This document shows positions 3 to 23,238 of a stretch of DNA of 27,123 bases, piece after piece (within the stretch, counting starts at the first letter, position 1; every line of letters starts with the position of its first letter). The position numbers were made by a program, and so were the translations under genes. The notes under the pieces were generated by a model. The model made no database searches. It saw only the letters and a program-made list of their open reading frames with translations, and was not told the DNA's origin. This DNA is from an uncultured virus (IMG/VR IMGVR_UViG_3300016471_000493) (Duplodnaviria; Heunggongvirae; Uroviricota; Caudoviricetes): the IMG/VR virus record IMGVR_UViG_3300016471_000493. One strand, written 5' to 3'.

Positions 3-806
3 TTTTTGACATACTCTTTTCCGTGTGTTGATGTTTCAATTTCAGGTAAACAACAAGGAATCAAAGAAGGTACAAGAAGTGGTTTATTATTTGATGTGGA
101 AAGAATTTTATCAGTGAATAGACCGAAATACCTTTTAATGGAAAATGTAAAGAACCTAATATCTAAAAAACATATTAAATCATTTGAAAACCACATTCTT
201 TTTCTGAAACAATTAGGATATAGTTCTTTTTGGAAATTATTAAATGGTGCTGATTTTGGTTGTCCACAAAACAGAGAAAGAATTTTTATGATGTCTGTTC
301 TAAATGGTGATCTAGAAGACGTTAAACAAAAGATGATGAATGTTGATAAGTATAAAAAAACTAGAGTACCAATGTCTTTGTTCGTTGAGGAAACTAATGA
401 CTCATCATTGTTTATCAATTGTCCATTCACATTACACAAAACAAAACAAAACACTGTCTGTAAGTTAGCCGCTAGACGAAATGATATTAATTATGATCAA
501 ACAAAACGGATTTACTCTATAGATGCTTGTTCACCTTGTTTAACCACTAGTGGGTCTCCACAAATTATGACACGGGATGGTAGAGTAAGAACACTTACCG
601 CAAGAGAGGGGTATAGATTTATGGGTGTCCATGATCAAGATATCGATAAACTATTAACAACATCTTTATCAACTAGAGCTCACATTTCATTAGCAGGTAA
701 TTCGATATGTGTTCCAGTTATGGAAGTAATCTTTAAAGAATTTTTCTACGAATACATTCAAGAACCTACAATGTCTGATACTATTACAGAAATCGTTGAA
801 GTTTGA
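3..806 (+). CDS. C5 cytosine DNA methyltransferase, 5'-truncated by the window edge
   Basis: Motif IV SFPC, motif VI ENV, motif VIII QNRERIF and motif X AGNSI are present. The frame is open from the window start and motif I is missing. Confidence 0.93.
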   Translation, partial: FLTYSFPCVDVSISGKQQGIKEGTRSGLLFDVERILSVNRPKYLLMENVKNLISKKHIKSFENHILFLKQLGYSSFWKLLNGADFGCPQNRERIFMMSVLNGDLEDVKQKMMNVDKYKKTRVPMSLFVEETNDSSLFINCPFTLHKTKQNTVCKLAARRNDINYDQTKRIYSIDACSPCLTTSGSPQIMTRDGRVRTLTAREGYRFMGVHDQDIDKLLTTSLSTRAHISLAGNSICVPVMEVIFKEFFYEYIQEPTMSDTITEIVEV

Positions 807-874: not shown

Positions 875-2461
875 TTACAAATCAGCTAATCTGTCAGAAA
901 GGTAAGAATTAAACTCACTATCATCACACCATGGACTCCAACGACTATCTATAGAGAATGAAGGTTGTTTAATTATATTTTTGTAGTAGTCAAAAAGATA
1001 GTCTAGAAATAATTCTAACGAAGTTTCATTTGCACTCTCCATAGATTCTGCAATCTCATCCAAATCAGAATTTTCTAAAAATGGTAGTAAATCAAAACCA
1101 TTTATTTTTAATTTAACCCCAGTGTCGTTCATTTCAACCACTTCCCCGTATTGACTCAAAGCACTTTTCAACGTGTCATAATAATGGTCATAAGTTGCGA
1201 CCTCTTCACAATCATTCCTTGCTGAATTCATAGCACTTTTTATATCTACCAAATCATTAAATTCCTCAATAGCCTCTTCTAACTCTTCAGGAATTTCTTC
1301 AATACTATGTTCATTTGCGGTTTTTCTGATTATACCCCAAATAGTTTCTGCATTTTTTTCACTAACATCGTCTATAAGATCACTCAGGGAATAATCATAA
1401 TAGTCATAATGACCCCAAAAGTCTCCACTCAAAAGTGTTTCAAAAAACCCAACTTGGATTATTCTACCACTTGGAGTTGTTCTTCTTCTTTCTGTCCAAT
1501 CCCCATCGACATAATCTTTCACATTTTCTGGGTCGATAGAAATTTCAAATGTAAGATCTTTACCTTCAAATGGACTTTTATCAATCAATCCCATTTTGTT
1601 AAGTTTATATTTTGTAATAAATCCATCGAAAAAGTCAGGTCTTTGGGACATTAAGGTGTTTATTTGGTCTTTGGAAAGATCCCAAATTTGGAAATCTGTT
1701 TCAGGTCTATATTCACTTTTAAATTTATTTATAAAATATTCCGAGTCATTATCAGGAACAGGGTTTTTCAAAGTAAGAAGTGGAAGTATGTATTTGATAT
1801 ATTCTTCATCAGGTTTGGAATTTTTGGGTCCTTTCATTTGAATCACAACACCATCATTATCAATTGCCGCGGTAACGTGACTTCGGTTTATTGTAAATTT
1901 ATCTGATAATTTTTGAAACGATCTTAAAGAATATAGATTAGCTCTAGACCTACCACAATGACCCATTCGTTCACATTCTTCAGGTGAGTTATTAGTTCCC
2001 AAATTTACCCAATAGTAACCCAAACCGTCAGACCCCCTAAAATCTTTGATTATTTCATTTTTCTCGTCATAGTTGATATTTCCACTCCCTATTTGTAAAC
2101 TTTGATGCCATTCATGTTGAAGTGCACTTAGTTGAGACCAACTAAGTTGTTTAATTGAACTTGTGTCTCCATTTAAGTGTACTCGAACATAGTCAATAAT
2201 ACCAACTATACTGCTACGATAGTTTCGAATAAAATTACTTACGTAACCATCTATAGTCCCAGGTTCAATTGACACAGAAGGTCTATTTCTTGACCCAAAG
2301 GCTGATGTATCCAAAATTTTATTTGCAATCCACACAGAAAGATTTCCACATATTTTTTGTAGAGTTTCCGCGGTGGTTTGAGATAAACCAAGTTTTTCTA
2401 CCAAAATTTTGACCTTTGACCCTTCTAAGATCAAATTTGAAAGATTTTTAATTAGTTTCAA
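875..2461 (-). CDS. Leader-bearing phage protein with PcfJ-like central domain and acidic C-terminus
   Basis: 528 aa. Leader MKLIKNLSNLILE. EECERMGHCG...YSLR...HVT...IQMKGPKNSKP follows the PcfJ-like pattern. TATTTATA lies at 2481-2474. Confidence 0.7.
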   Translation of the reverse strand: MKLIKNLSNLILEGSKVKILVEKLGLSQTTAETLQKICGNLSVWIANKILDTSAFGSRNRPSVSIEPGTIDGYVSNFIRNYRSSIVGIIDYVRVHLNGDTSSIKQLSWSQLSALQHEWHQSLQIGSGNINYDEKNEIIKDFRGSDGLGYYWVNLGTNNSPEECERMGHCGRSRANLYSLRSFQKLSDKFTINRSHVTAAIDNDGVVIQMKGPKNSKPDEEYIKYILPLLTLKNPVPDNDSEYFINKFKSEYRPETDFQIWDLSKDQINTLMSQRPDFFDGFITKYKLNKMGLIDKSPFEGKDLTFEISIDPENVKDYVDGDWTERRRTTPSGRIIQVGFFETLLSGDFWGHYDYYDYSLSDLIDDVSEKNAETIWGIIRKTANEHSIEEIPEELEEAIEEFNDLVDIKSAMNSARNDCEEVATYDHYYDTLKSALSQYGEVVEMNDTGVKLKINGFDLLPFLENSDLDEIAESMESANETSLELFLDYLFDYYKNIIKQPSFSIDSRWSPWCDDSEFNSYLSDRLADL

Positions 2462-2473
2462 AACACTTTTTTT

Positions 2474-2481
2474 TATAAATA
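2474..2481 (-). promoter_or_regulatory. TATTTATA motif (putative phage late promoter), representative copy
   Basis: The same sense-strand motif precedes many leader-bearing genes; positions are listed in the findings. Confidence 0.65.
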
Positions 2482-2502
2482 CAAATACACTTAAAAAAAA
2501 AA

Positions 2503-2534
2503 TTTGATTTTCGAGAATTTTTCAATTATCTTTG
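2503..2534 (+). promoter_or_regulatory. Bacteroidota-type primary sigma promoter (-33/-7)
   Basis: TTTG (2503-2506), 20 nt spacer, TATCTTTG (2527-2534). Confidence 0.8.
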
Positions 2535-2545
2535 TAAGAAAAAAT

Positions 2546-2749
2546 ATGATTACTGGATTAATAATTGGATTTTTGATTGGATTTCTAACCACTTTTGTAA
2601 TTGGTTATTTGATTTTTTTAAAATTTGTAAAAAGACCTATGAACAAATTAATTAATGAATCATTCTCAAATTTTTTAAATTTTGGAATCAAAAATGGTAT
2701 AGATGTTGTGGACATTCAGAAAAAAATATACAAAAAAGACAAATTTTAA
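2546..2749 (+). CDS. Small single-pass membrane protein
   Basis: ATG at 2546 lies just after the promoter. Hydrophobic N-terminus MITGLIIGFLIGFLTTFVIGYLIFLK. Confidence 0.7.
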   Translation: MITGLIIGFLIGFLTTFVIGYLIFLKFVKRPMNKLINESFSNFLNFGIKNGIDVVDIQKKIYKKDKF

Positions 2750-2750
2750 A

Positions 2751-2894
2751 AGTCCGGCTTGAGATTGAGTGAGTTCTTTCTGGTAATCAATCTCAGGTAA
2801 CAACCAGTCACTGTAGATCCACAGGATCGGTGTGAACAGAAAGATCGTCAACCGGGAAAACGGTACTGAAGAGGTAACCAGTCTCTTCTTTTTT
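2751..2894 (+). ncRNA. Putative structured non-coding RNA of unknown family ending in an intrinsic terminator
   Basis: GC-rich island in AT-rich DNA. Stems TGAGATTGA/TCAATCTCA, GGT/ACC, GATCC/GGATC and ACCG/CGGT, long-range TCTTTCTG/CAGAAAGA, and a final GAAGAGG/TCTCTTC followed by a T-run. Confidence 0.65.
2868..2894 (+). terminator. Intrinsic terminator
   Basis: GAAGAGG-TAACCAG-TCTCTTC followed by TTTTTT. Confidence 0.65.
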
Positions 2895-3760
2895 CAATAT
2901 TTGTTACCAAACATTTCAAAATCTTCTTTCATTGTTTTCAACATATCTTTTGGATATACCATTGTGAGCAATTGTTTCCATTTATATGCGATTTTGTCAT
3001 CTATAGAATCCCACCAATCATAATCTTCAATATTTTCAGCATCCCTACTTAAATCAAAATGGATTGCCAATTTCTCAAAAGGAGATTTGAGGACTTTAGA
3101 TATTATGTAATATAGTGGACCTTTTTGAGTAATATTTCTAAAATGGGTATCAGAAGTTTCAGTTGTACACCATCTTGTATTTGCTCCGTATTTACACGAG
3201 GCCGCATGATTTAACGGAACTACAACTAAATATTCACCATCATCATATATTTTTTTGGCTTTTGGAGTATCACTCTCTTTTTGTATTAAGATTTTTAAAT
3301 ACTCGTCTTTTACATCCGCAAAATATGGAAATTGATTGATATCCTGATAAGTAAACTTGTGGCTCATTCTATCGAAAATAGAAACCACCTTAACAAAATC
3401 ATTTAGATACTCAATTTTTTCGACCCTAAGTGCCATAGTTCCCAAAATTTCTAACATCGTTCTGAGACTCCATTCTCTATAATCTTCACTCGTGTCTGAT
3501 AGACTTGATTTATTATACTCTACCACACGATCCCATCGAAATGGAGACATACCTGGGGAATACCAATTCTTTAACAAAAAATCTAAATATTTTTGTTTGG
3601 TACGTATCATAAATTCATTATTCAACGATAAGGTATACATGTTGGTATTACCTTCAGCAATGAACATACTTACTTCTATTTCCGCATCAATGTACTCCTT
3701 GTATTTAGATCTAATTTCTCTAATTCGACTTTCTGAAATTAAAAAACTCTTTCTGTGCAT
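2894..3760 (-). CDS. Leader-bearing phage protein with C-terminal ASCxYGxxTxWC domain
   Basis: Likely ATG at 3760 (MHRKSFLISE), just downstream of TATTTATA at 3771-3764. Motif KIYDDGEYLVVVPLNHAASCKYGANTRWCT. Confidence 0.75.
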   Translation of the reverse strand: MHRKSFLISESRIREIRSKYKEYIDAEIEVSMFIAEGNTNMYTLSLNNEFMIRTKQKYLDFLLKNWYSPGMSPFRWDRVVEYNKSSLSDTSEDYREWSLRTMLEILGTMALRVEKIEYLNDFVKVVSIFDRMSHKFTYQDINQFPYFADVKDEYLKILIQKESDTPKAKKIYDDGEYLVVVPLNHAASCKYGANTRWCTTETSDTHFRNITQKGPLYYIISKVLKSPFEKLAIHFDLSRDAENIEDYDWWDSIDDKIAYKWKQLLTMVYPKDMLKTMKEDFEMFGNKY

Positions 3761-3784
3761 TTGTATAAATATACATAAAAAAAA

Positions 3785-3815
3785 TTTGATTAAACTCAAG
3801 TTTGTTGTATCTTTG
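3785..3815 (+). promoter_or_regulatory. Bacteroidota-type promoter of the tRNA cluster
   Basis: TTTG (3785-3788), 19 nt spacer, TATCTTTG (3808-3815). Confidence 0.8.
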
Positions 3816-3820
3816 TAAAT

Positions 3821-3850
3821 GTTCGAGTCAAATTGAACTTGTTCTTTGAA
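3821..3850 (+). promoter_or_regulatory. boxB-like hairpin plus boxA-like antitermination site
   Basis: GTTCGA-GTCAAA-TTGAAC hairpin, then TGTTCTTTGAA, located between the promoter and the first tRNA. Confidence 0.55.
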
Positions 3851-3862
3851 ATCATGAAAATT

Positions 3863-3947
3863 GCCAGAGTGTTGAAACAGGTAGACAAGATTGACTTAAA
3901 ATTAATTGAGCTAAGCGCTCGTGTGGGTTCGAGTCCCATCTCTGGTA
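3863..3947 (+). tRNA. tRNA-Leu (TAA)
   Basis: Acceptor GCCAGAG/CTCTGGT, anticodon arm ATTGA-CTTAAAA-TTAAT, long variable arm, T arm GTGGG-TTCGAGT-CCCAT. Confidence 0.93.
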
Positions 3948-3956
3948 CAATATTTT

Positions 3957-4050
3957 AGTCAGGTGGCGGAATGGTAGACGTTATACATAGATAACAACCA
4001 ATATTTAAAAGAGGTGTGTTATCATACAGGTTCGAATCCTGTCCTGACTT
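3957..4050 (+). ncRNA. tRNA-like RNA with no canonical anticodon arm
   Basis: Perfect acceptor AGTCAGG/CCTGACT, D arm GCG-GAATGGTAGA-CGT, T arm ACAGG-TTCGAAT-CCTGT. The central region is an irregular long hairpin. Confidence 0.8.
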
Positions 4051-4055
4051 CATAT

Positions 4056-4127
4056 CGCGGGGAAGAGCAAAGGCTGCTCACTGGGCTCATAACCCAGGGG
4101 TTGTGGGTTCGAGTCCCACCCCCGCTA
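4056..4127 (+). tRNA. Initiator tRNA-fMet (CAT)
   Basis: C1:T72 mismatch, anticodon arm CTGGG-CTCATAA-CCCAG with three G-C pairs, T arm GTGGG-TTCGAGT-CCCAC. Confidence 0.92.
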
Positions 4128-4140
4128 CAAAATATTACAT

Positions 4141-4227
4141 ATGAATAGTTATTATTTTATAATCCTATTACTTTTATTTATTGTATTGGGTTTTGGAATT
4201 TTGTGGTATGAATCAAAAAAAATATAA
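4141..4227 (+). CDS. 28-aa membrane peptide inside the tRNA cluster (not in the ORF track)
   Basis: MNSYYFIILLLLFIVLGFGILWYESKKI*: one hydrophobic helix with a basic tail, filling the tRNA spacer almost exactly. Confidence 0.5.
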   Translation: MNSYYFIILLLLFIVLGFGILWYESKKI

Positions 4228-4231
4228 ATCT

Positions 4232-4304
4232 GCTCTCGTGGCGCAACGGTTAGCGCAAGATGCTTATACCATCGAGGTTACAGGTTCAAATCCTGTCGGG
4301 AGTA
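4232..4304 (+). tRNA. tRNA-Ile (TAT)
   Basis: Acceptor GCTCTCG/CGGGAGT, loop CT-TAT-AC at 4263-4269, T arm ACAGG-TTCAAAT-CCTGT. Confidence 0.88.
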
Positions 4305-4310
4305 CAAAAC

Positions 4311-4381
4311 GCCTCCATAGTTAAACGGTATAACGATTGATTTGTAATCAATTATTCTTGGTTCGATTCCGAGTGGAGGCT
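4311..4381 (+). tRNA. tRNA-Thr (TGT)
   Basis: Acceptor GCCTCCA/TGGAGGC, anticodon arm ATTGA-TTTGTAA-TCAAT. Confidence 0.93.
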
Positions 4382-4391
4382 CAATTAAATT

Positions 4392-4463
4392 GGGTCCATA
4401 GTTAAAGGGATATAACTTCTGCCTTCTAAGCTGACGTTCCAAGTTCGAATCTTGGTGGACCTA
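4392..4463 (+). tRNA. tRNA-Arg (TCT)
   Basis: Acceptor GGGTCCA/TGGACCT, loop CT-TCT-AA, T arm CCAAG-TTCGAAT-CTTGG. Confidence 0.92.
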
Positions 4464-4467
4464 CTAA

Positions 4468-4511
4468 ATTGGTTGTCTATTGTTCATACCAATCAAAAAT
4501 AATGAACTAGA
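4468..4511 (+). other. Predicted H-type RNA pseudoknot at the 3' end of the tRNA cluster
   Basis: Stem 1 ATTGGT/ACCAAT, stem 2 TCTA-TT-GTTCAT/ATGAAC-TAGA, A-rich connecting loop. Confidence 0.45.
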
Positions 4512-4552
4512 TCAAAATATTTCAATTTTTTTCAAGAATAAAAAGTATAAAG

Positions 4553-4584
4553 TTTGGTAATTTGAAAAAAAATATCTATATTTG
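4553..4584 (+). promoter_or_regulatory. Bacteroidota-type promoter
   Basis: TTTG (4553-4556), 20 nt spacer, TATATTTG (4577-4584). Confidence 0.78.
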
Positions 4585-4601
4585 TCTTCAATTTATTTCA
4601 A

Positions 4602-5105
4602 ATGACACCGCACGAGTTACTTCATATCATAAACCATCAGCCCAACAAATTGTCTTTGTTAATCGATACATTGAATTTGTTGAAAAATTCTAATGGTTTT
4701 GAACAAGATTTATTGACACCAGGGTTCATTAAAGAGTGGTTGGTATCCGATATTTTGGGTCATAAATGTCACAAGACCAAACATGGTGCCGACGCTACTT
4801 CATTGGACGGCACAGAGAAATACGAATACTTGTCTTGTAAAGAAGGTGGTTCATTCCAATTGGACCGTATTCATAGGAACAATCTTCATCGTATCGAAAG
4901 AAACAACGCATTTTTTTTCGCTCTATTCGATCAGAACGATGGGTTGAAATGTTTGAAGATATGGAAGGGAGCTACCTCAGATGTTCTCTCTGAATGTCTT
5001 AAGAAATTTGAAACTATGTCCGCTAGTTCAAATCATATATCTATATCTAAAAAATGGGTAATGAATAATTGTGAATTGGTATTTGAAAAACTTGATTTAC
5101 TTTAA
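4602..5105 (+). CDS. PvuII-like restriction-endonuclease-fold protein
   Basis: 167 aa. HGADATSLDGTEKYEYLS parallels PvuII EGNDAVDNAGQEYELKS, and the C-terminal ISKKWVMNNCELVF parallels IPVKYVMEHGTKIY (comparison recalled from memory). Confidence 0.6.
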   Translation: MTPHELLHIINHQPNKLSLLIDTLNLLKNSNGFEQDLLTPGFIKEWLVSDILGHKCHKTKHGADATSLDGTEKYEYLSCKEGGSFQLDRIHRNNLHRIERNNAFFFALFDQNDGLKCLKIWKGATSDVLSECLKKFETMSASSNHISISKKWVMNNCELVFEKLDLL

Positions 5106-6033: not shown

Positions 6034-6789
6034 TTAACATTGTCTCACTGGTGGTTTATCATATTGAATGACATATCTATCACCTTGTCTTAAAATTATT
6101 TCGGAGTTTTGATTTAGAAAAATCAAAATTTTACTGTCATTACTGTAAACCATAAAGTGTAAACGATTACTAGGATATTGTTTCATACCTATTGTGGTAA
6201 TTTCCCATTTTCCGTTTTTTTGGGTTGCATCGACTAATGGTTTTACTTGAAATCCTTTTCCATCCACCATAAAATCAATGCCTTCTTTTTCATCTTCTGG
6301 AGAACCTTTACAAAAAACCTTGATTCTATCATCAGTCAGTGTATTGTAAGCTTTTTTTAATCTTTGCAAGGTTGATTTTTCCAATTCAAATCCTCGAGTA
6401 CTAGTTGACCAAACAACATCTCTCAATTGTTTTGCAATATCTCCCACCCCTCCAAATAAAATTTCTTTATTTTCTTTTATCCATTCCATAAAGTTATCAA
6501 CTGTTTGCTCTCGTGGAGGTAAACTCCGTAAGATCGAATTTACGAAAAACCTATACATTTTTATTCTCATTTTTCTATTGGAATAAAAGAAATTCAAAAT
6601 AGACCAATTGGTATTTTCATCGACAGGAAATATGTCTAAAAACCCTTCACGAGTTTTACAAGGCGGTTCATCAATTTGTCCGATATAATCTCGATACATT
6701 TCTTCAAGTATTGATTGAATTAAATCAGAGACTTTCTTTGATAAAAAATCTTTTGGGATTTCTTGTGAATAATCAAGTAATAGGTTCAT
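6034..6789 (-). CDS. Phage protein with PD-QxK nuclease domain
   Basis: RGFELE...EDEKEGIDFMVDGKGFQVKP. TATTTAT lies at 6842-6836. Confidence 0.68.
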   Translation of the reverse strand: MNLLLDYSQEIPKDFLSKKVSDLIQSILEEMYRDYIGQIDEPPCKTREGFLDIFPVDENTNWSILNFFYSNRKMRIKMYRFFVNSILRSLPPREQTVDNFMEWIKENKEILFGGVGDIAKQLRDVVWSTSTRGFELEKSTLQRLKKAYNTLTDDRIKVFCKGSPEDEKEGIDFMVDGKGFQVKPLVDATQKNGKWEITTIGMKQYPSNRLHFMVYSNDSKILIFLNQNSEIILRQGDRYVIQYDKPPVRQC

Positions 6790-20961: not shown

Positions 20962-22098
20962 ATGATAGAAATGACTGTCGAATCTAAAAAAAAAATTAAA
21001 TGTAATGAATGTGGATGGTCATGGAAGCTATCTGAAGGTGGTGATGACCCATATACTTGTCATAAATGCGGATATCTCAACAAACCAAACAATATGAAAA
21101 AAATAATTAAATTAACAGAATCAGAATTATTATCATTGATTGAACGTCTTATTTATGAAAATAATACAAAATTAAGAACAGGGAAAAAACCAAAAAAAGA
21201 AACTCAGGAAATGAAAGAAGGTGAATTAACTGAGAAATGTTGGCCTGGTTATACTCAAAAGGGTATGAAGACAATGTTTGGTAAAAGATATCCCAACTGT
21301 GTAAAAAAAACAGTAAAAGATTTAGATGAAGGTGAAATAAATTGGAAAAAAGAAAAATCATGGAAAATACAAGATCAATTTCCAATTGAAGTGTTTGTTG
21401 AAAAAAGTTGGACTGGTAAATATTATGTTGTAAAAGTTCCAATTATGAGTATGAGTTATGAAACATTTATGGATCTAGATAATTTTGGTAAAGTTGATAT
21501 TTCAACCTATGACTATGAAAATGGTGAAGCAAAATTCACATCATATTCCTTAGATAATATAAAAAAATGGGGTGAGAATAACAAAGACAAAATTCATATT
21601 AATTATTCAAGATTAATGAATGAACAAATATCTAGAATACAATCAATGATGGGGTTGAATGAACAGGGTGAGTTGGATACTTTACCCAAAAAATATAATC
21701 CAGAATCAACTTTAGATTTTTCGAATAGTAAAGTCAAAGATATTGTATGGAGGGCTGGTAATATGGAATTGAATCCCTTAAATGGTGGTATATGGTTTGG
21801 AGAAACCAAAAAAGGTGTCGAAAATTTTGCAATATCTGTCATAGGTAAAGTAATAGAAGGAAAACCATATCATATAAATTTAGAAAATCCATTTTACTTT
21901 GATTCTTTTTGGCATGGTTATCTTGAAGAAGTAAAGAATAGCCCCGATGGAAGAAAAACATTAATGTATCAACTAAAACTTGAAGGTTACGATGGAATAA
22001 TTATAGATACAGATACTTGGAATGATACTGGAGATGAATATGCGGTAACCTCAAAACAATACATCGTATTTTATCCCGAAAATATAAAGCCAGCATAA
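20962..22098 (+). CDS. Multi-module protein: zinc ribbon, internal leader, CWxGY...NCV module, second internal leader, ART-PolyVal-like domain
   Basis: CNECGWSW...CHKCG; MKKIIKLTESEL; CWPGY...PNCVK; MNEQISRIQSMMGLNE; SKVKDIVWRAG...GIWF...NLENP...GYDGII...YIVFYPENIK. Confidence 0.78.
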   Translation: MIEMTVESKKKIKCNECGWSWKLSEGGDDPYTCHKCGYLNKPNNMKKIIKLTESELLSLIERLIYENNTKLRTGKKPKKETQEMKEGELTEKCWPGYTQKGMKTMFGKRYPNCVKKTVKDLDEGEINWKKEKSWKIQDQFPIEVFVEKSWTGKYYVVKVPIMSMSYETFMDLDNFGKVDISTYDYENGEAKFTSYSLDNIKKWGENNKDKIHINYSRLMNEQISRIQSMMGLNEQGELDTLPKKYNPESTLDFSNSKVKDIVWRAGNMELNPLNGGIWFGETKKGVENFAISVIGKVIEGKPYHINLENPFYFDSFWHGYLEEVKNSPDGRKTLMYQLKLEGYDGIIIDTDTWNDTGDEYAVTSKQYIVFYPENIKPA

Positions 22099-22221: not shown

Positions 22222-23238
22222 ATGAATGTATTAAGTCTATTTGATGGAATGAGTTGTGGCCAAATTGCCTTAAACAAATTAGGTATAAAATATGAAAACT
22301 ATTTTGCTTCTGAAATTGATCCACATGCCATTAAGGTAACAAAAGCAAATTATCCCAATACCAAACATGTTGGTGATGTAGTAAAATTAAAAGGAGAGAA
22401 TTTTCCTAAAATTGATTTACTCATAGGTGGAAGTCCTTGTCAGGGATTTAGTTTTGCTGGAAAACAATTAAATTTTGAAGATCCGCGAAGCAAATTGTTT
22501 TTTGAATATGCAAGATTGCTCAATGAATTGAATCCAAAATATTTCTTGCTTGAAAATGTGAAAATGAAAAAAGACAGTCAAGATATAATTTCAAAATATT
22601 TGGGAGTTGAGCCGATTGAGATTAATTCAAGCCTTGTATCTGCGCAAAATAGACGAAGGCTTTATTGGACCAATATTCCAAATATTGAACAACCAGATGA
22701 TCAAGGAATTTTATTGAAGGATATTATTGTTGACGGAGCGGTTGATTGTAGAATGACAACCGAAGATAAGGCATATGCTTTAACCGCGTCATATAACGGA
22801 GCGGTGGCTTGGAACAGCATAGAAAAAAGGCAAAGAACAATGATATTGGATGCGGTCAATGGTAAAAAAATTCATATTGATTTATTTAAAGACACTCCAT
22901 ATACATTTTACGAAACAAGAACAGAAGAAGGAAAAGAAATGAGACGAAAAATTAGAATAGAAACAGGTAGAGATTCAACTCCTAGGAGCAAAGAATTTAA
23001 AATGTATTTACCATTGAATCAACAAAAGGCGAATTGTCTTGTAACCGTAGAAAGTCCTTTGGATTTTATAGTGGATAAAAGTTGGAAGTATAGAAAATTA
23101 TATCCAATTGAAATGGAGAGATTGCAAACCGTACCGGATGGATATACCAAAATGGTAAGTGATACACAAGCAAGACGAATGTTAGGTAATGGTTGGACGG
23201 TTGATGTAATTTGTCATATATTTAAAAACCTGGTATAA
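22222..23238 (+). CDS. C5 cytosine DNA methyltransferase
   Basis: LSLFDGMSCG, GGSPCQGFS, LLENV, AQNRRRLYW, ERLQ, LGNGW. Confidence 0.96.
   Translation: MNVLSLFDGMSCGQIALNKLGIKYENYFASEIDPHAIKVTKANYPNTKHVGDVVKLKGENFPKIDLLIGGSPCQGFSFAGKQLNFEDPRSKLFFEYARLLNELNPKYFLLENVKMKKDSQDIISKYLGVEPIEINSSLVSAQNRRRLYWTNIPNIEQPDDQGILLKDIIVDGAVDCRMTTEDKAYALTASYNGAVAWNSIEKRQRTMILDAVNGKKIHIDLFKDTPYTFYETRTEEGKEMRRKIRIETGRDSTPRSKEFKMYLPLNQQKANCLVTVESPLDFIVDKSWKYRKLYPIEMERLQTVPDGYTKMVSDTQARRMLGNGWTVDVICHIFKNLV

Follow-up and report, generated by a model that had tools for sequence, protein, structure and literature searches.

A Rare Structured RNA Family Beside or Near tRNA-Like Genes in a Few Freshwater Jumbo-Phage Lineages

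Genomic Setting of the Structured Element

The stretch of DNA analyzed in this study, referred to as the window (27,123 nt), represents record IMGVR_UViG_3300016471_000493 of the IMG/VR database and originates from an uncultured virus of the class Caudoviricetes. The window is A+T-rich (G+C content of 0.304) and encodes DNA methylases, an endolysin-like protein, a cluster of transfer RNA (tRNA) genes, and many open reading frames (ORFs) without a known family. The closest available record, G001, is an IMG/VR contig of 62 kb that was rated 19% complete, and the source was therefore deduced to be a jumbo phage; the sequencing runs containing window DNA are freshwater or lake metagenomes. Between two stops, namely that of a small hydrophobic ORF upstream and that of a convergent ORF downstream, a non-coding element of approximately 137 nt is located on the plus strand (Table 1), and this element is the subject of the present analysis.

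In a preliminary description, made from the letters of the window alone, a G+C-rich island had been placed between a small membrane gene and a convergent gene, and this position was confirmed. The G+C content amounts to 0.444 at positions 2750-2893, a value that was equally high in 0.76% of the 144-nt segments of the window, the top-ranked of the sampled segments falling inside the tRNA cluster. The same description proposed an unannotated structured RNA of approximately 140 nt at this site, which is borne out by the G+C island together with covariation across three phage lineages and the lack of a matching Rfam family. The stretch specified in Table 1 is thus very probably the gene for a genuine structured RNA, namely a compact, putatively pseudoknotted RNA composed of four helices (P1 to P4) and constituting a new RNA family in a few freshwater jumbo-phage lineages.

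Table 1. Coordinates of the element, its parts, and further features of the window and the related loci.
Feature	Position	Strand	Remarks
Structured RNA element	window 2758-2894	+	P1 to P4 with tail
P1 hairpin, 11 bp	window 2758-2768 with 2787-2797	+	closes L1; changes on both sides in 6/11 pairs, 98% of cells paired
L1, 18-nt loop	window 2769-2786	+	motif GAG(U/A)UCUUU(C/U)UGGUA kept
Pseudoknot 5′ strand UCUUUCUG, in L1	window 2775-2782	+	exact 8-nt complement of 2837-2844
J1/2 linker UAACAACCAG	window 2798-2807	+	9/10 positions (AACAACCAG) invariant in three lineages
P2a, UCAC/GUGA	window 2808-2811 with 2832-2835	+	invariant
P2 internal loop UGUA/GGU	between P2a and P2b	+	
P2b, GAUCC/GGAUC, loop ACA	window 2816-2820 with 2824-2828	+	changes on both sides in 3/5 pairs
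J2/3, AACAGAAAGAUCGUCA region	window 2836-2850	+	invariant save A2844G in the window clade; holds pseudoknot 3′ strand 2837-2844
P3 hairpin ACCG/CGGU, loop GGAAAA	window 2851-2854 with 2861-2864	+	stem invariant in all lineages
P4 hairpin, loop UAACCAG	window 2868-2874 with 2882-2888	+	change on both sides in 1/7 pairs (A-U to G-C, L125)
U6 tail	window 2889-2894	+	adjoins P4, window clade
Small membrane-protein ORF, 67 aa from ATG 2546	window 2546-2749, stop 2747-2749	+	from the ORF list; context, outside the RNA
Convergent ORF, probably 288 aa from the second Met (288/301 aa)	window 2894-3799	-	from the ORF list
TGTTCTTTGAAA, only exact copy in the window	window 3840-3851	+	12 nt upstream of tRNA-Leu
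TGTTCTTTGAAA, one-mismatch copy	L390 8667-8678	-	in G050, ~80 nt upstream of the element
Anticodon-less tRNA-like gene	window 3957-4051	+	Rfam tRNA model, 37.5 bits
Anticodon-less tRNA-like gene	L122 (=L039) 965-873	-	Rfam tRNA model, 38.6 bits
Anticodon-less tRNA-like gene	L125 1455-1360	-	Rfam tRNA model, 38.8 bits
528-aa protein	window 875-2461	-	
Two C5 cytosine DNA methylases and an MjaI-like restriction endonuclease domain	window 3-806, 6034-6789, 22222-23238		
ART-PolyVal-like domain	window 20962-22098		
HD-domain protein	window 23850-24410		

Fold and Covariation of the Element

Homologues of the element were assigned to three lineages: the window clade, a second lineage represented by locus L039 of record G006 (L122 being the same locus; also L391), and a third represented by locus L125 of record G050. 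The complementarities on which the preliminary description was based, namely the P1 core (TGAGATTGA/TCAATCTCA), the pairing of the loop sequence TCTTTCTG with CAGAAAGA, GATCC/GGATC, ACCG/CGGT, and the terminator, were all verified in the window. Both P1 and P4 form in each homologue when folded alone, and P3 appears in the fold predictions made for the window and L039 individually. The helix P2b is represented by three different sequences across the lineages (GAUCC, UUACC, and AUGCC), the length of its loop varying from 2-3 to 10 nt among the homologues.

Alignment A9, comprising five distinct sequences of the three lineages and fitted to the model, was used for the evaluation of the proposed pairs. 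In total, 99% of the cells were paired, and ten pairs were changed on both sides (six in P1, three in P2b, and one in P4), compared to a mean of 4.6 in shuffled alignments, with none of 500 shuffles reaching the observed number. Likewise, none of the 500 shuffles matched the observed values for cells paired, pairs and cells changed on both sides, and the covariation score, and the number of further pair types was reached by 4 of 500. When the partners were slid by one to three columns as a control, between 38% and 48% of the cells were paired. The outcome was the same for an independent MAFFT alignment (A6) of the window clade with L039, in which nine pairs were changed on both sides. Homologues and covariation, which had been set beforehand as the check on the predicted structure, thus support P1, GATCC/GGATC, and P4. 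The stem of P3 is invariant, and covariation speaks neither for nor against it.

The conservation of the element is sharply bimodal, a near-frozen core being combined with helices whose sequence has been turned over. Between the lineages, 8-9 of 22 positions are identical in the arms of P1 and 4 of 10 in those of P2b, compared to 14-15 of 18-19 in L1 and 87-91 of 96-97 in the core as a whole (L1, the junctions, P3, and P4), i.e., approximately 95 positions that are 90-94% identical. When the window, L039, and L125 were compared in pairs, 39 consecutive columns (A9 91-129), to which J2/3 belongs, were identical. Inside the window clade, position 2859 in the loop of P3 is either A or C.

The pseudoknot proposed in the preliminary description, connecting the loop L1 with CAGAAAGA in the junction J2/3, is retained as a candidate, its strands being paired in all five sequences. 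Two independent changes were observed, each on one side only: L039 carries U in place of C, and position 2844 is G rather than A in L001 as well as in the RNA-library contigs X15 and X18. Both of them yield G-U wobbles, and the pairing record is therefore consistent with, albeit not proof of, a loop-to-junction pseudoknot. Furthermore, the word AA(C/U)CAGUC occurs twice in all three lineages (2802-2809 and 2876-2883 in the window), and the segment CUGGU of L1 (2780-2784) has alternative partners, either ACCAG in J1/2 or ACCAG (AUCAG in L039) in the loop of P4. The pairing CUGGU/ACCAG is 100% preserved and essentially invariant; since the segments concerned hardly vary, covariation does not discriminate among the candidate partners.

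P4 and the T6 tract directly following it (GAAGAGG...TCTCTTC, 2868-2894) represent the sole terminator-like site detected by a terminator scan of positions 2300-4700, and for the window clade, P4 with its U6 tail is predicted to act as an intrinsic terminator. A conserved ORF was not found in the element: the plus-strand frame through the core stops after approximately 20 codons in L039 and 12 codons in L125, and a minus-strand reading frame is interrupted by the changed loop length of P2b.

These results also bear on the explanation that no RNA gene is present at all, the element being a terminator next to a G+C-rich spacer that arose by chance or next to the remnant of a decayed gene. The minimum free energy of the plus strand (-40.1 kcal/mol) corresponds to a z-score of -1.61, a fold of equal or lower energy being reached by 11 of 200 shuffles, and such a weak value would be expected for a spacer, as would the rarity of the family (three lineages among approximately 100 related records). 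However, ten compensatory pairs and a core that is 90-94% identical in phages having few or no neighbouring genes in common are at odds with a chance spacer, and the G+C island ranks with the tRNAs of the window. This explanation is hardly credible. For comparison, the z-score of the minus-strand fold was -0.65. A hairpin CUGU/ACAG appearing in the minimum free energy fold was rejected, the pairing being lost in L039.

Distribution of Homologues

Close relatives of the element were found in four IMG/VR contigs and one JGI contig; they are uninformative because they are 99-100% identical over the element. A family scan with the neighbouring 528-aa ORF yielded 73 loci (alignment-based), of which one, L039, contains a diverged copy (165.8 bits, 84.6% identity over 123 nt). 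The flanking protein of L039 is 53% identical to the 528-aa protein of the window, and the element is again located just 3′ of a small-ORF homologue (59% identity over 66 aa). Record G006, harboring L039, is otherwise syntenic with the window, including a methylase of 84% identity, and a 37% relative of the convergent ORF is encoded elsewhere in this record.

By means of a pattern derived from the parts common to the window and L039, the third lineage was detected in G050, a record of 219 kb with a completeness of 88%. Its copy of the element (L125) was scored at 123.1 bits by model R1 and at 149.5 bits by model R2. Within the 18 kb around this copy, a single 28-residue match to the window proteins was obtained, and a homologue of the small ORF was not found in this range; instead, the element is preceded by approximately 190 nt of non-coding DNA and an unrelated ORF of 135 aa.

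Further scans added no copy. Nine records of named phages were retrieved by blastn with the element, all of them at chance level (E = 6, coverage of up to 28%). A pattern based on the CR-I-like motif described below matched 21 stretches, four belonging to the window clade and 17 being unrelated. The pseudoknot-strand pattern was found in at least 116 stretches, and R1 had no match in 76 new loci among the 80 compared; similarly, no match of R1 was obtained for 80 of the at least 139 stretches carrying the 3′ motif of the tRNA-like gene. No further copy emerged across locus sets of 76, 76, and 80. Among 48 whole IMG/VR records, R1 identified G006 alone, the remaining matches showing E-values of 0.015-0.6 per record, and among 50 more IMG/VR records, R2 matched one terminator-like piece of 24 nt (E = 0.048). 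A pattern scan of a genome collection returned two stretches, from metagenome-assembled genomes of Planctomycetota and Terriglobales, neither with a model match. Protein-anchored scans with the 301-aa ORF reached the window clade only. Further protein relatives exist (P0002 with 80% identity and P0008-P0013 with 51-78%), and in this identity range the DNA of L039 alone was compared. As far as exact-pattern scans over a limited number of matches can tell, the family is real but rare.

The 528-aa protein used for the family scan had one weak Pfam match below the cut-off and no match in PHROG. It has 729 relatives at E<=0.001, many of them encoded on phage contigs of 100-325 kb, as well as an invariant EECxRMGHCGR block, and it appears to be a widespread core protein of jumbo phages without an assigned function.

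The 3′ End of the Element and the tRNA-Like Gene

In both diverged lineages, the element directly adjoins a gene of unusual architecture, for which a match to the Rfam tRNA model begins 4 nt (AUUU) after P4. According to predicted folds, this anticodon-less, tRNA-like gene has a normal T-arm and a normal acceptor stem (AGTCAGG), while the place of the anticodon arm is taken by a long stem-loop; its D-arm is presumably Leu-like. The genes were missed by ARAGORN as well as by the Rfam run at gathering score. The copy in the window resides 1 kb downstream of the element in the tRNA cluster, between tRNA-Leu and tRNA-Met, and is separated from the element by the convergent gene and tRNA-Leu.

The intact core was consequently encountered in three settings: with the small ORF and the tRNA-like gene in L039, with the tRNA-like gene and no small ORF in L125, and with the small ORF and the terminator but no adjoining tRNA-like gene in the window. 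U-rich tails follow P4 in all lineages (U6, UUUAG, and UUUGG). In L039, in which the tail is AUUU, no terminator-like site was called after the element. In terms of context, a structured non-coding RNA lying against a phage tRNA-like gene was found in L039 and L125. A link to tRNA biology, as suggested in the preliminary description, is supported by the adjoining tRNA-like gene in two of three lineages. Predictions of duplexes between the element and the tRNA-like RNA were uninformative and were not used.

Several observations were made on the tRNA-like arrays themselves. The 3′ motif of the tRNA-like gene often occurs several times per contig among its at least 139 IMG/VR stretches, and ARAGORN calls at 22 loci with this motif were inconsistent or absent, some of them being odd (anticodons of 2 or 4 nt). 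Downstream of the tRNA-like gene in L125 (1360-100 on the minus strand, corresponding to approximately 52.9-54.3 kb of G050), a region of about 1.3 kb contains short overlapping ORFs only, together with many T-arm-like GGTTCGAxTCC motifs and two called matches to the tRNA model; it looks like an array of tRNA-like scaffolds with embedded small RNAs. In G001, seven copies of the 3′ motif are present at approximately 19.2-22.4 kb, compared to one at 3863-4464 of the window. These two have 39% of the sampled 31-mers in common, and the tRNA array is therefore hypervariable between near-identical phages. In G006, small membrane-protein ORFs rather than tRNAs follow the tRNA-like gene on the same strand (L039/L391 582-836 on the minus strand and neighbours).

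Presence in RNA Libraries and Possible Functions in cis

Part of the region 2300-3400 is included in six RNA sequencing runs, and contigs of four runs from four studies were mapped on the window. These RNA-library contigs cover positions 2555-3007, 2630-2982, 2714-2857, and 2555-2854, with one further covered piece at 2311-2461; the uncovered parts (2485-2554 and 3008-3400) were not counted as evidence. The stretch encoding the element is thus present in RNA libraries.

The contexts described above raise the question of an action in cis, with the element serving as the leader of the downstream tRNA or tRNA-like array and governing the extent of polymerase read-through, either as an attenuator or as an antitermination signal. 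As an attenuator, P4 would be leaky and modulated by the upstream fold in a riboswitch-like manner. In the case of processive antitermination, a boxA-like L1 or the whole RNA, comparable to the put RNA of phage HK022, would be the signal, allowing polymerase to pass terminators or Rho along the whole of the long, untranslated array. Such a leader would fit the position of the element directly upstream of the tRNA-like gene in two of three lineages and, in the window, the orientation that it shares with the tRNA array 1 kb further on. It would also fit the U-rich tails after P4 in all lineages, the aptamer-like combination of a conserved core with variable helices, and the RNA contigs X15 and X16, which span the terminator, although such contigs cannot demonstrate read-through by one transcript.

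Moreover, L1 contains the sequence GUUCUUU, and the 12-mer TGTTCTTTGAAA, which we take to be the boxA of ribosomal RNA operons of Gram-positive bacteria, is located close to tRNA-Leu in the window and, with one mismatch, upstream of the element in G050 (Table 1). The same word occurs in papers on Mycoplasma or on the detection of bacteria. However, boxA-like matches with up to two mismatches amounted to 24 in the window against 14.1 expected, 3 of 100 shuffles being as high; they were at chance level in L390, and the vicinity of the element in G006 was free of copies. A strong terminator and the convergent gene of 288/301 aa isolate the element from the array in the window clade, in which it is still 99-100% conserved, and in L039, in which no terminator-like site was called, protein ORFs and not an array follow the tRNA-like gene. 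In addition, no conserved alternative pairing that could act as an antiterminator was found among those tested. A leader function in cis is considered possible but unlikely.

Alternatively, the element might represent the structured 3′ untranslated region (UTR) of the messenger RNA (mRNA) encoding the small membrane protein, acting by protection against exonucleases or by translation control similar to the fold-back of type I toxin mRNAs. The distance between the stop of the conserved small hydrophobic ORF and the start of the element is 8 nt in the window and approximately 17 nt in L039, RNA contigs join this ORF and the element, and the pyrimidine-rich L1 and purine-rich J2/3 may resemble a pair of anti-Shine-Dalgarno and Shine-Dalgarno sequences. 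By contrast, the element of G050 lacks a small-ORF homologue within 18 kb, approximately 95 near-invariant positions would be needless for a simple stabilizer, and inspection by eye revealed no antisense RNA or conserved pairing to the ribosome-binding site of the ORF. A function as a 3′ UTR therefore appears quite improbable.

Relationship to RNase P RNA and Other Described Families

In the preliminary description, the element was proposed to resemble the specificity domain of RNase P RNA, with CR-II- and CR-III-like T-loops binding the tRNA elbow, and to alternate between two mutually exclusive folds as a decoy or switch. The motifs AAAGTCCGG, CAGGTAAC, ACAGAAAG, and TGAAG, the identity of which with the CR motifs we assume, are indeed present in this order in the window sequence, but the order is not conserved in the homologues. 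The CR-I-like 9-mer AAAGTCCGG reads ATTCTAGCC in L039 and GACCCGGCC in L125, CAGGTAAC corresponds to the covarying 3′ arm of P1, and TGAAG, situated within the covarying helix P4, is replaced by TTAAG in L125. The exception is ACAGAAAG, which does not vary in any lineage and is at the same time a candidate strand of the pseudoknot.

Of the two folds, the first (fold A) was retained in part: P1, the candidate pseudoknot, and the terminator are upheld, whereas the closure GGCT/AGTC is partly broken in the homologues. For the second (fold B), three of six pairs of the closing helix GAGATT/AGTCTC (2761-2766/2880-2885) and two of five pairs of AGTGA/TCACT are broken in both L039 and L125, which argues against the two-fold switch. 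None of the alternative pairings tested that would compete with the terminator is conserved, the search for such alternatives not being exhaustive.

Covariance models pointed in the same direction. RNase P and T-box families were not among the matches at E<=10 on 2600-3050 or 2745-2900, and no RNase P family was obtained at E<=1 over the whole window. RF00010 had no match in G001, G006, G050 (88% complete), or G051-G053, and RF00011 had none in G001, while the control genomes were detected. A 15-mer consensus that we take to represent CR-I gave matches at control level only. With regard to a T-box, RF00230 had no match at E<=10, and a same-strand coding gene is not present downstream in the window. 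Homology to the RNase P specificity domain thus appears largely refuted by these comparisons. The invariance of ACAGAAAG and the physical linkage to the tRNA-like gene in two lineages would still suit a specificity-domain-like RNA; nevertheless, in view of the unconserved or helix-embedded motifs, the broken closing helices, and the missing model matches in the related records examined, an RNA of this kind is very unlikely.

At gathering score, Rfam reported tRNAs only in the window, and the homologue loci of L039 and L125 were also devoid of a family match for the element; the novelty of the element thus stands. Among weaker matches, PVT1_3 (a model of a human long non-coding RNA without structure; minus strand, E = 0.0049), STnc290 (matching the terminator only), snoR127, and WT1-AS_5 were rejected. 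In the literature, searched at the level of titles and abstracts, no description of the element or of anticodon-less tRNA-like arrays was found.

Proposed Mode of Action

An autonomous, trans-acting stable RNA of phage tRNA arrays is proposed as the best explanation for the element, and we give it about an even chance. The RNA would be transcribed together with upstream sequence, and its 3′ end would be fixed just after P4. In L039 and L125, the arrangement of which looks ancestral, cleavage by RNase P at the 5′ boundary of the tRNA-like gene, which starts 4 nt after P4, would set free an RNA ending with P4 and AUUU. The specificity of RNase P rests on the shape of the acceptor and the T-arm. 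In the window clade, P4 and the U6 tail would terminate transcription instead and generate a near-identical end, the convergent gene now lying between the RNA and the tRNA array. The freed RNA would then work alone, and its near-invariant core (L1, J1/2, J2/3, and P3 to P4) would bind a conserved partner, which may be a protein, an RNA, or a ligand. The data show the gene itself, its helices P1, P2b, and P4, the conservation pattern, the contexts, and the occurrence in RNA libraries, whereas cleavage by RNase P, a role in trans, and a bound partner are inferred. The core is intact in three settings, each with a 3′ end just after P4, and an autonomous stable RNA would therefore be the simplest account.

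Several points weigh against this proposal. Alignment A9 was fitted to the model and leans toward the structure. Only three lineages are available, one of which contributes three of the five aligned sequences. No variation was seen in P2a, P3, or the greater part of P4, which are predicted by folding, and the pseudoknot shows one-sided, wobble-preserving changes but no double change. The folding energy of the whole element is unexceptional (z-score of -1.61). The RNA contigs are unstranded, have a depth of 2-5x, and lack defined ends, so that carry-over of DNA or the mRNA of the convergent gene could be their source. No 5′ end or promoter was identified, promoter-like matches being at the level of shuffled sequences. 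Finally, in the window and L039, the RNA could be a plain 3′ UTR of the small ORF.

As a further possibility, the element might be a reader of tRNA shape that docks on the elbow of the tRNA-like scaffold or of tRNAs, gating processing by RNase P or supplying substrate recognition in trans. It would then be a functional analogue, and not a homologue, of the RNase P specificity domain or of Stem I of T-boxes. We regard such a role as highly doubtful.

Further Features of the Window

Apart from the tRNA cluster, the 27 kb of the window encode two DNA methylases of the C5 cytosine type together with a restriction endonuclease domain resembling MjaI, as well as an ART-PolyVal-like domain and an HD-domain protein (Table 1).

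Comparison with Known Systems

The element belongs to a kind of RNA that is already known but poorly understood, namely the small structured RNAs of phage tRNA clusters. In the record of phage T4, two small stable RNAs are annotated right beside tRNA-Arg, namely rnaC (species 1, 139 nt) and rnaD (species 2, 119 nt). They share with the element the nature of a phage non-coding RNA of approximately 120-140 nt lying against a tRNA gene, with a function not assigned, and in both cases tRNA-processing enzymes can define an end. However, no similarity in sequence or structure was detected, R2 having no match at E<=10 in the tRNA region of T4. Furthermore, the T4 RNAs follow the last tRNA, whereas the element precedes the tRNA-like gene and, in the window clade, is detached and equipped with its own terminator. 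The element would thus be analogous to rnaC and rnaD by context, not by homology.

The RNAs GOLLD and ROOL are comparable by context as well. In a previous report, they are described as being often found near tRNAs and in prophages, and as possibly co-transcribed with tRNAs (PMC5737381). Unlike the element, these RNAs are approximately 580 nt or larger; they show no match to it, and the element family, with its three lineages, is much rarer.

With the specificity domain of RNase P RNA, the element has in common a purine-rich junction of the ACAGAAAG type by a short hairpin and an association with tRNA substrates. The topologies differ, since the specificity domain is built in a P7 to P14 arrangement, while the element consists of P1 to P4 and a pseudoknot between loop and junction. 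In addition, no gene for a catalytic-domain partner was detected in the related records examined. Similar to riboswitch aptamers, the element combines freely covarying helices with a near-invariant core and a pseudoknot, and on its 3′ side a hairpin precedes a U-rich stretch. In contrast to riboswitches, no conserved pairing of an expression platform was found, an Rfam class is missing, and in the window clade no coding gene follows downstream.

In phages, tRNA arrays tend to be regarded as plain collections of tRNAs. The element adds a family supported by covariation to the growing number of unexplained structured RNAs located beside the tRNA-shaped scaffolds of lake jumbo phages. A near-frozen core of approximately 95 nt combined with turned-over helices, in phages having few or no neighbouring genes in common, is the mark of RNAs that bind specifically, among them riboswitches, ribozymes, and protein-binding RNAs. 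The two routes proposed to lead to the same 3′ end, a cut at the tRNA-like gene on the one hand and a terminator on the other, would represent a natural experiment on the mobility and independence of an RNA module, and the identification of the partner would reveal roles of tRNA islands in phages beyond the supply of tRNAs.

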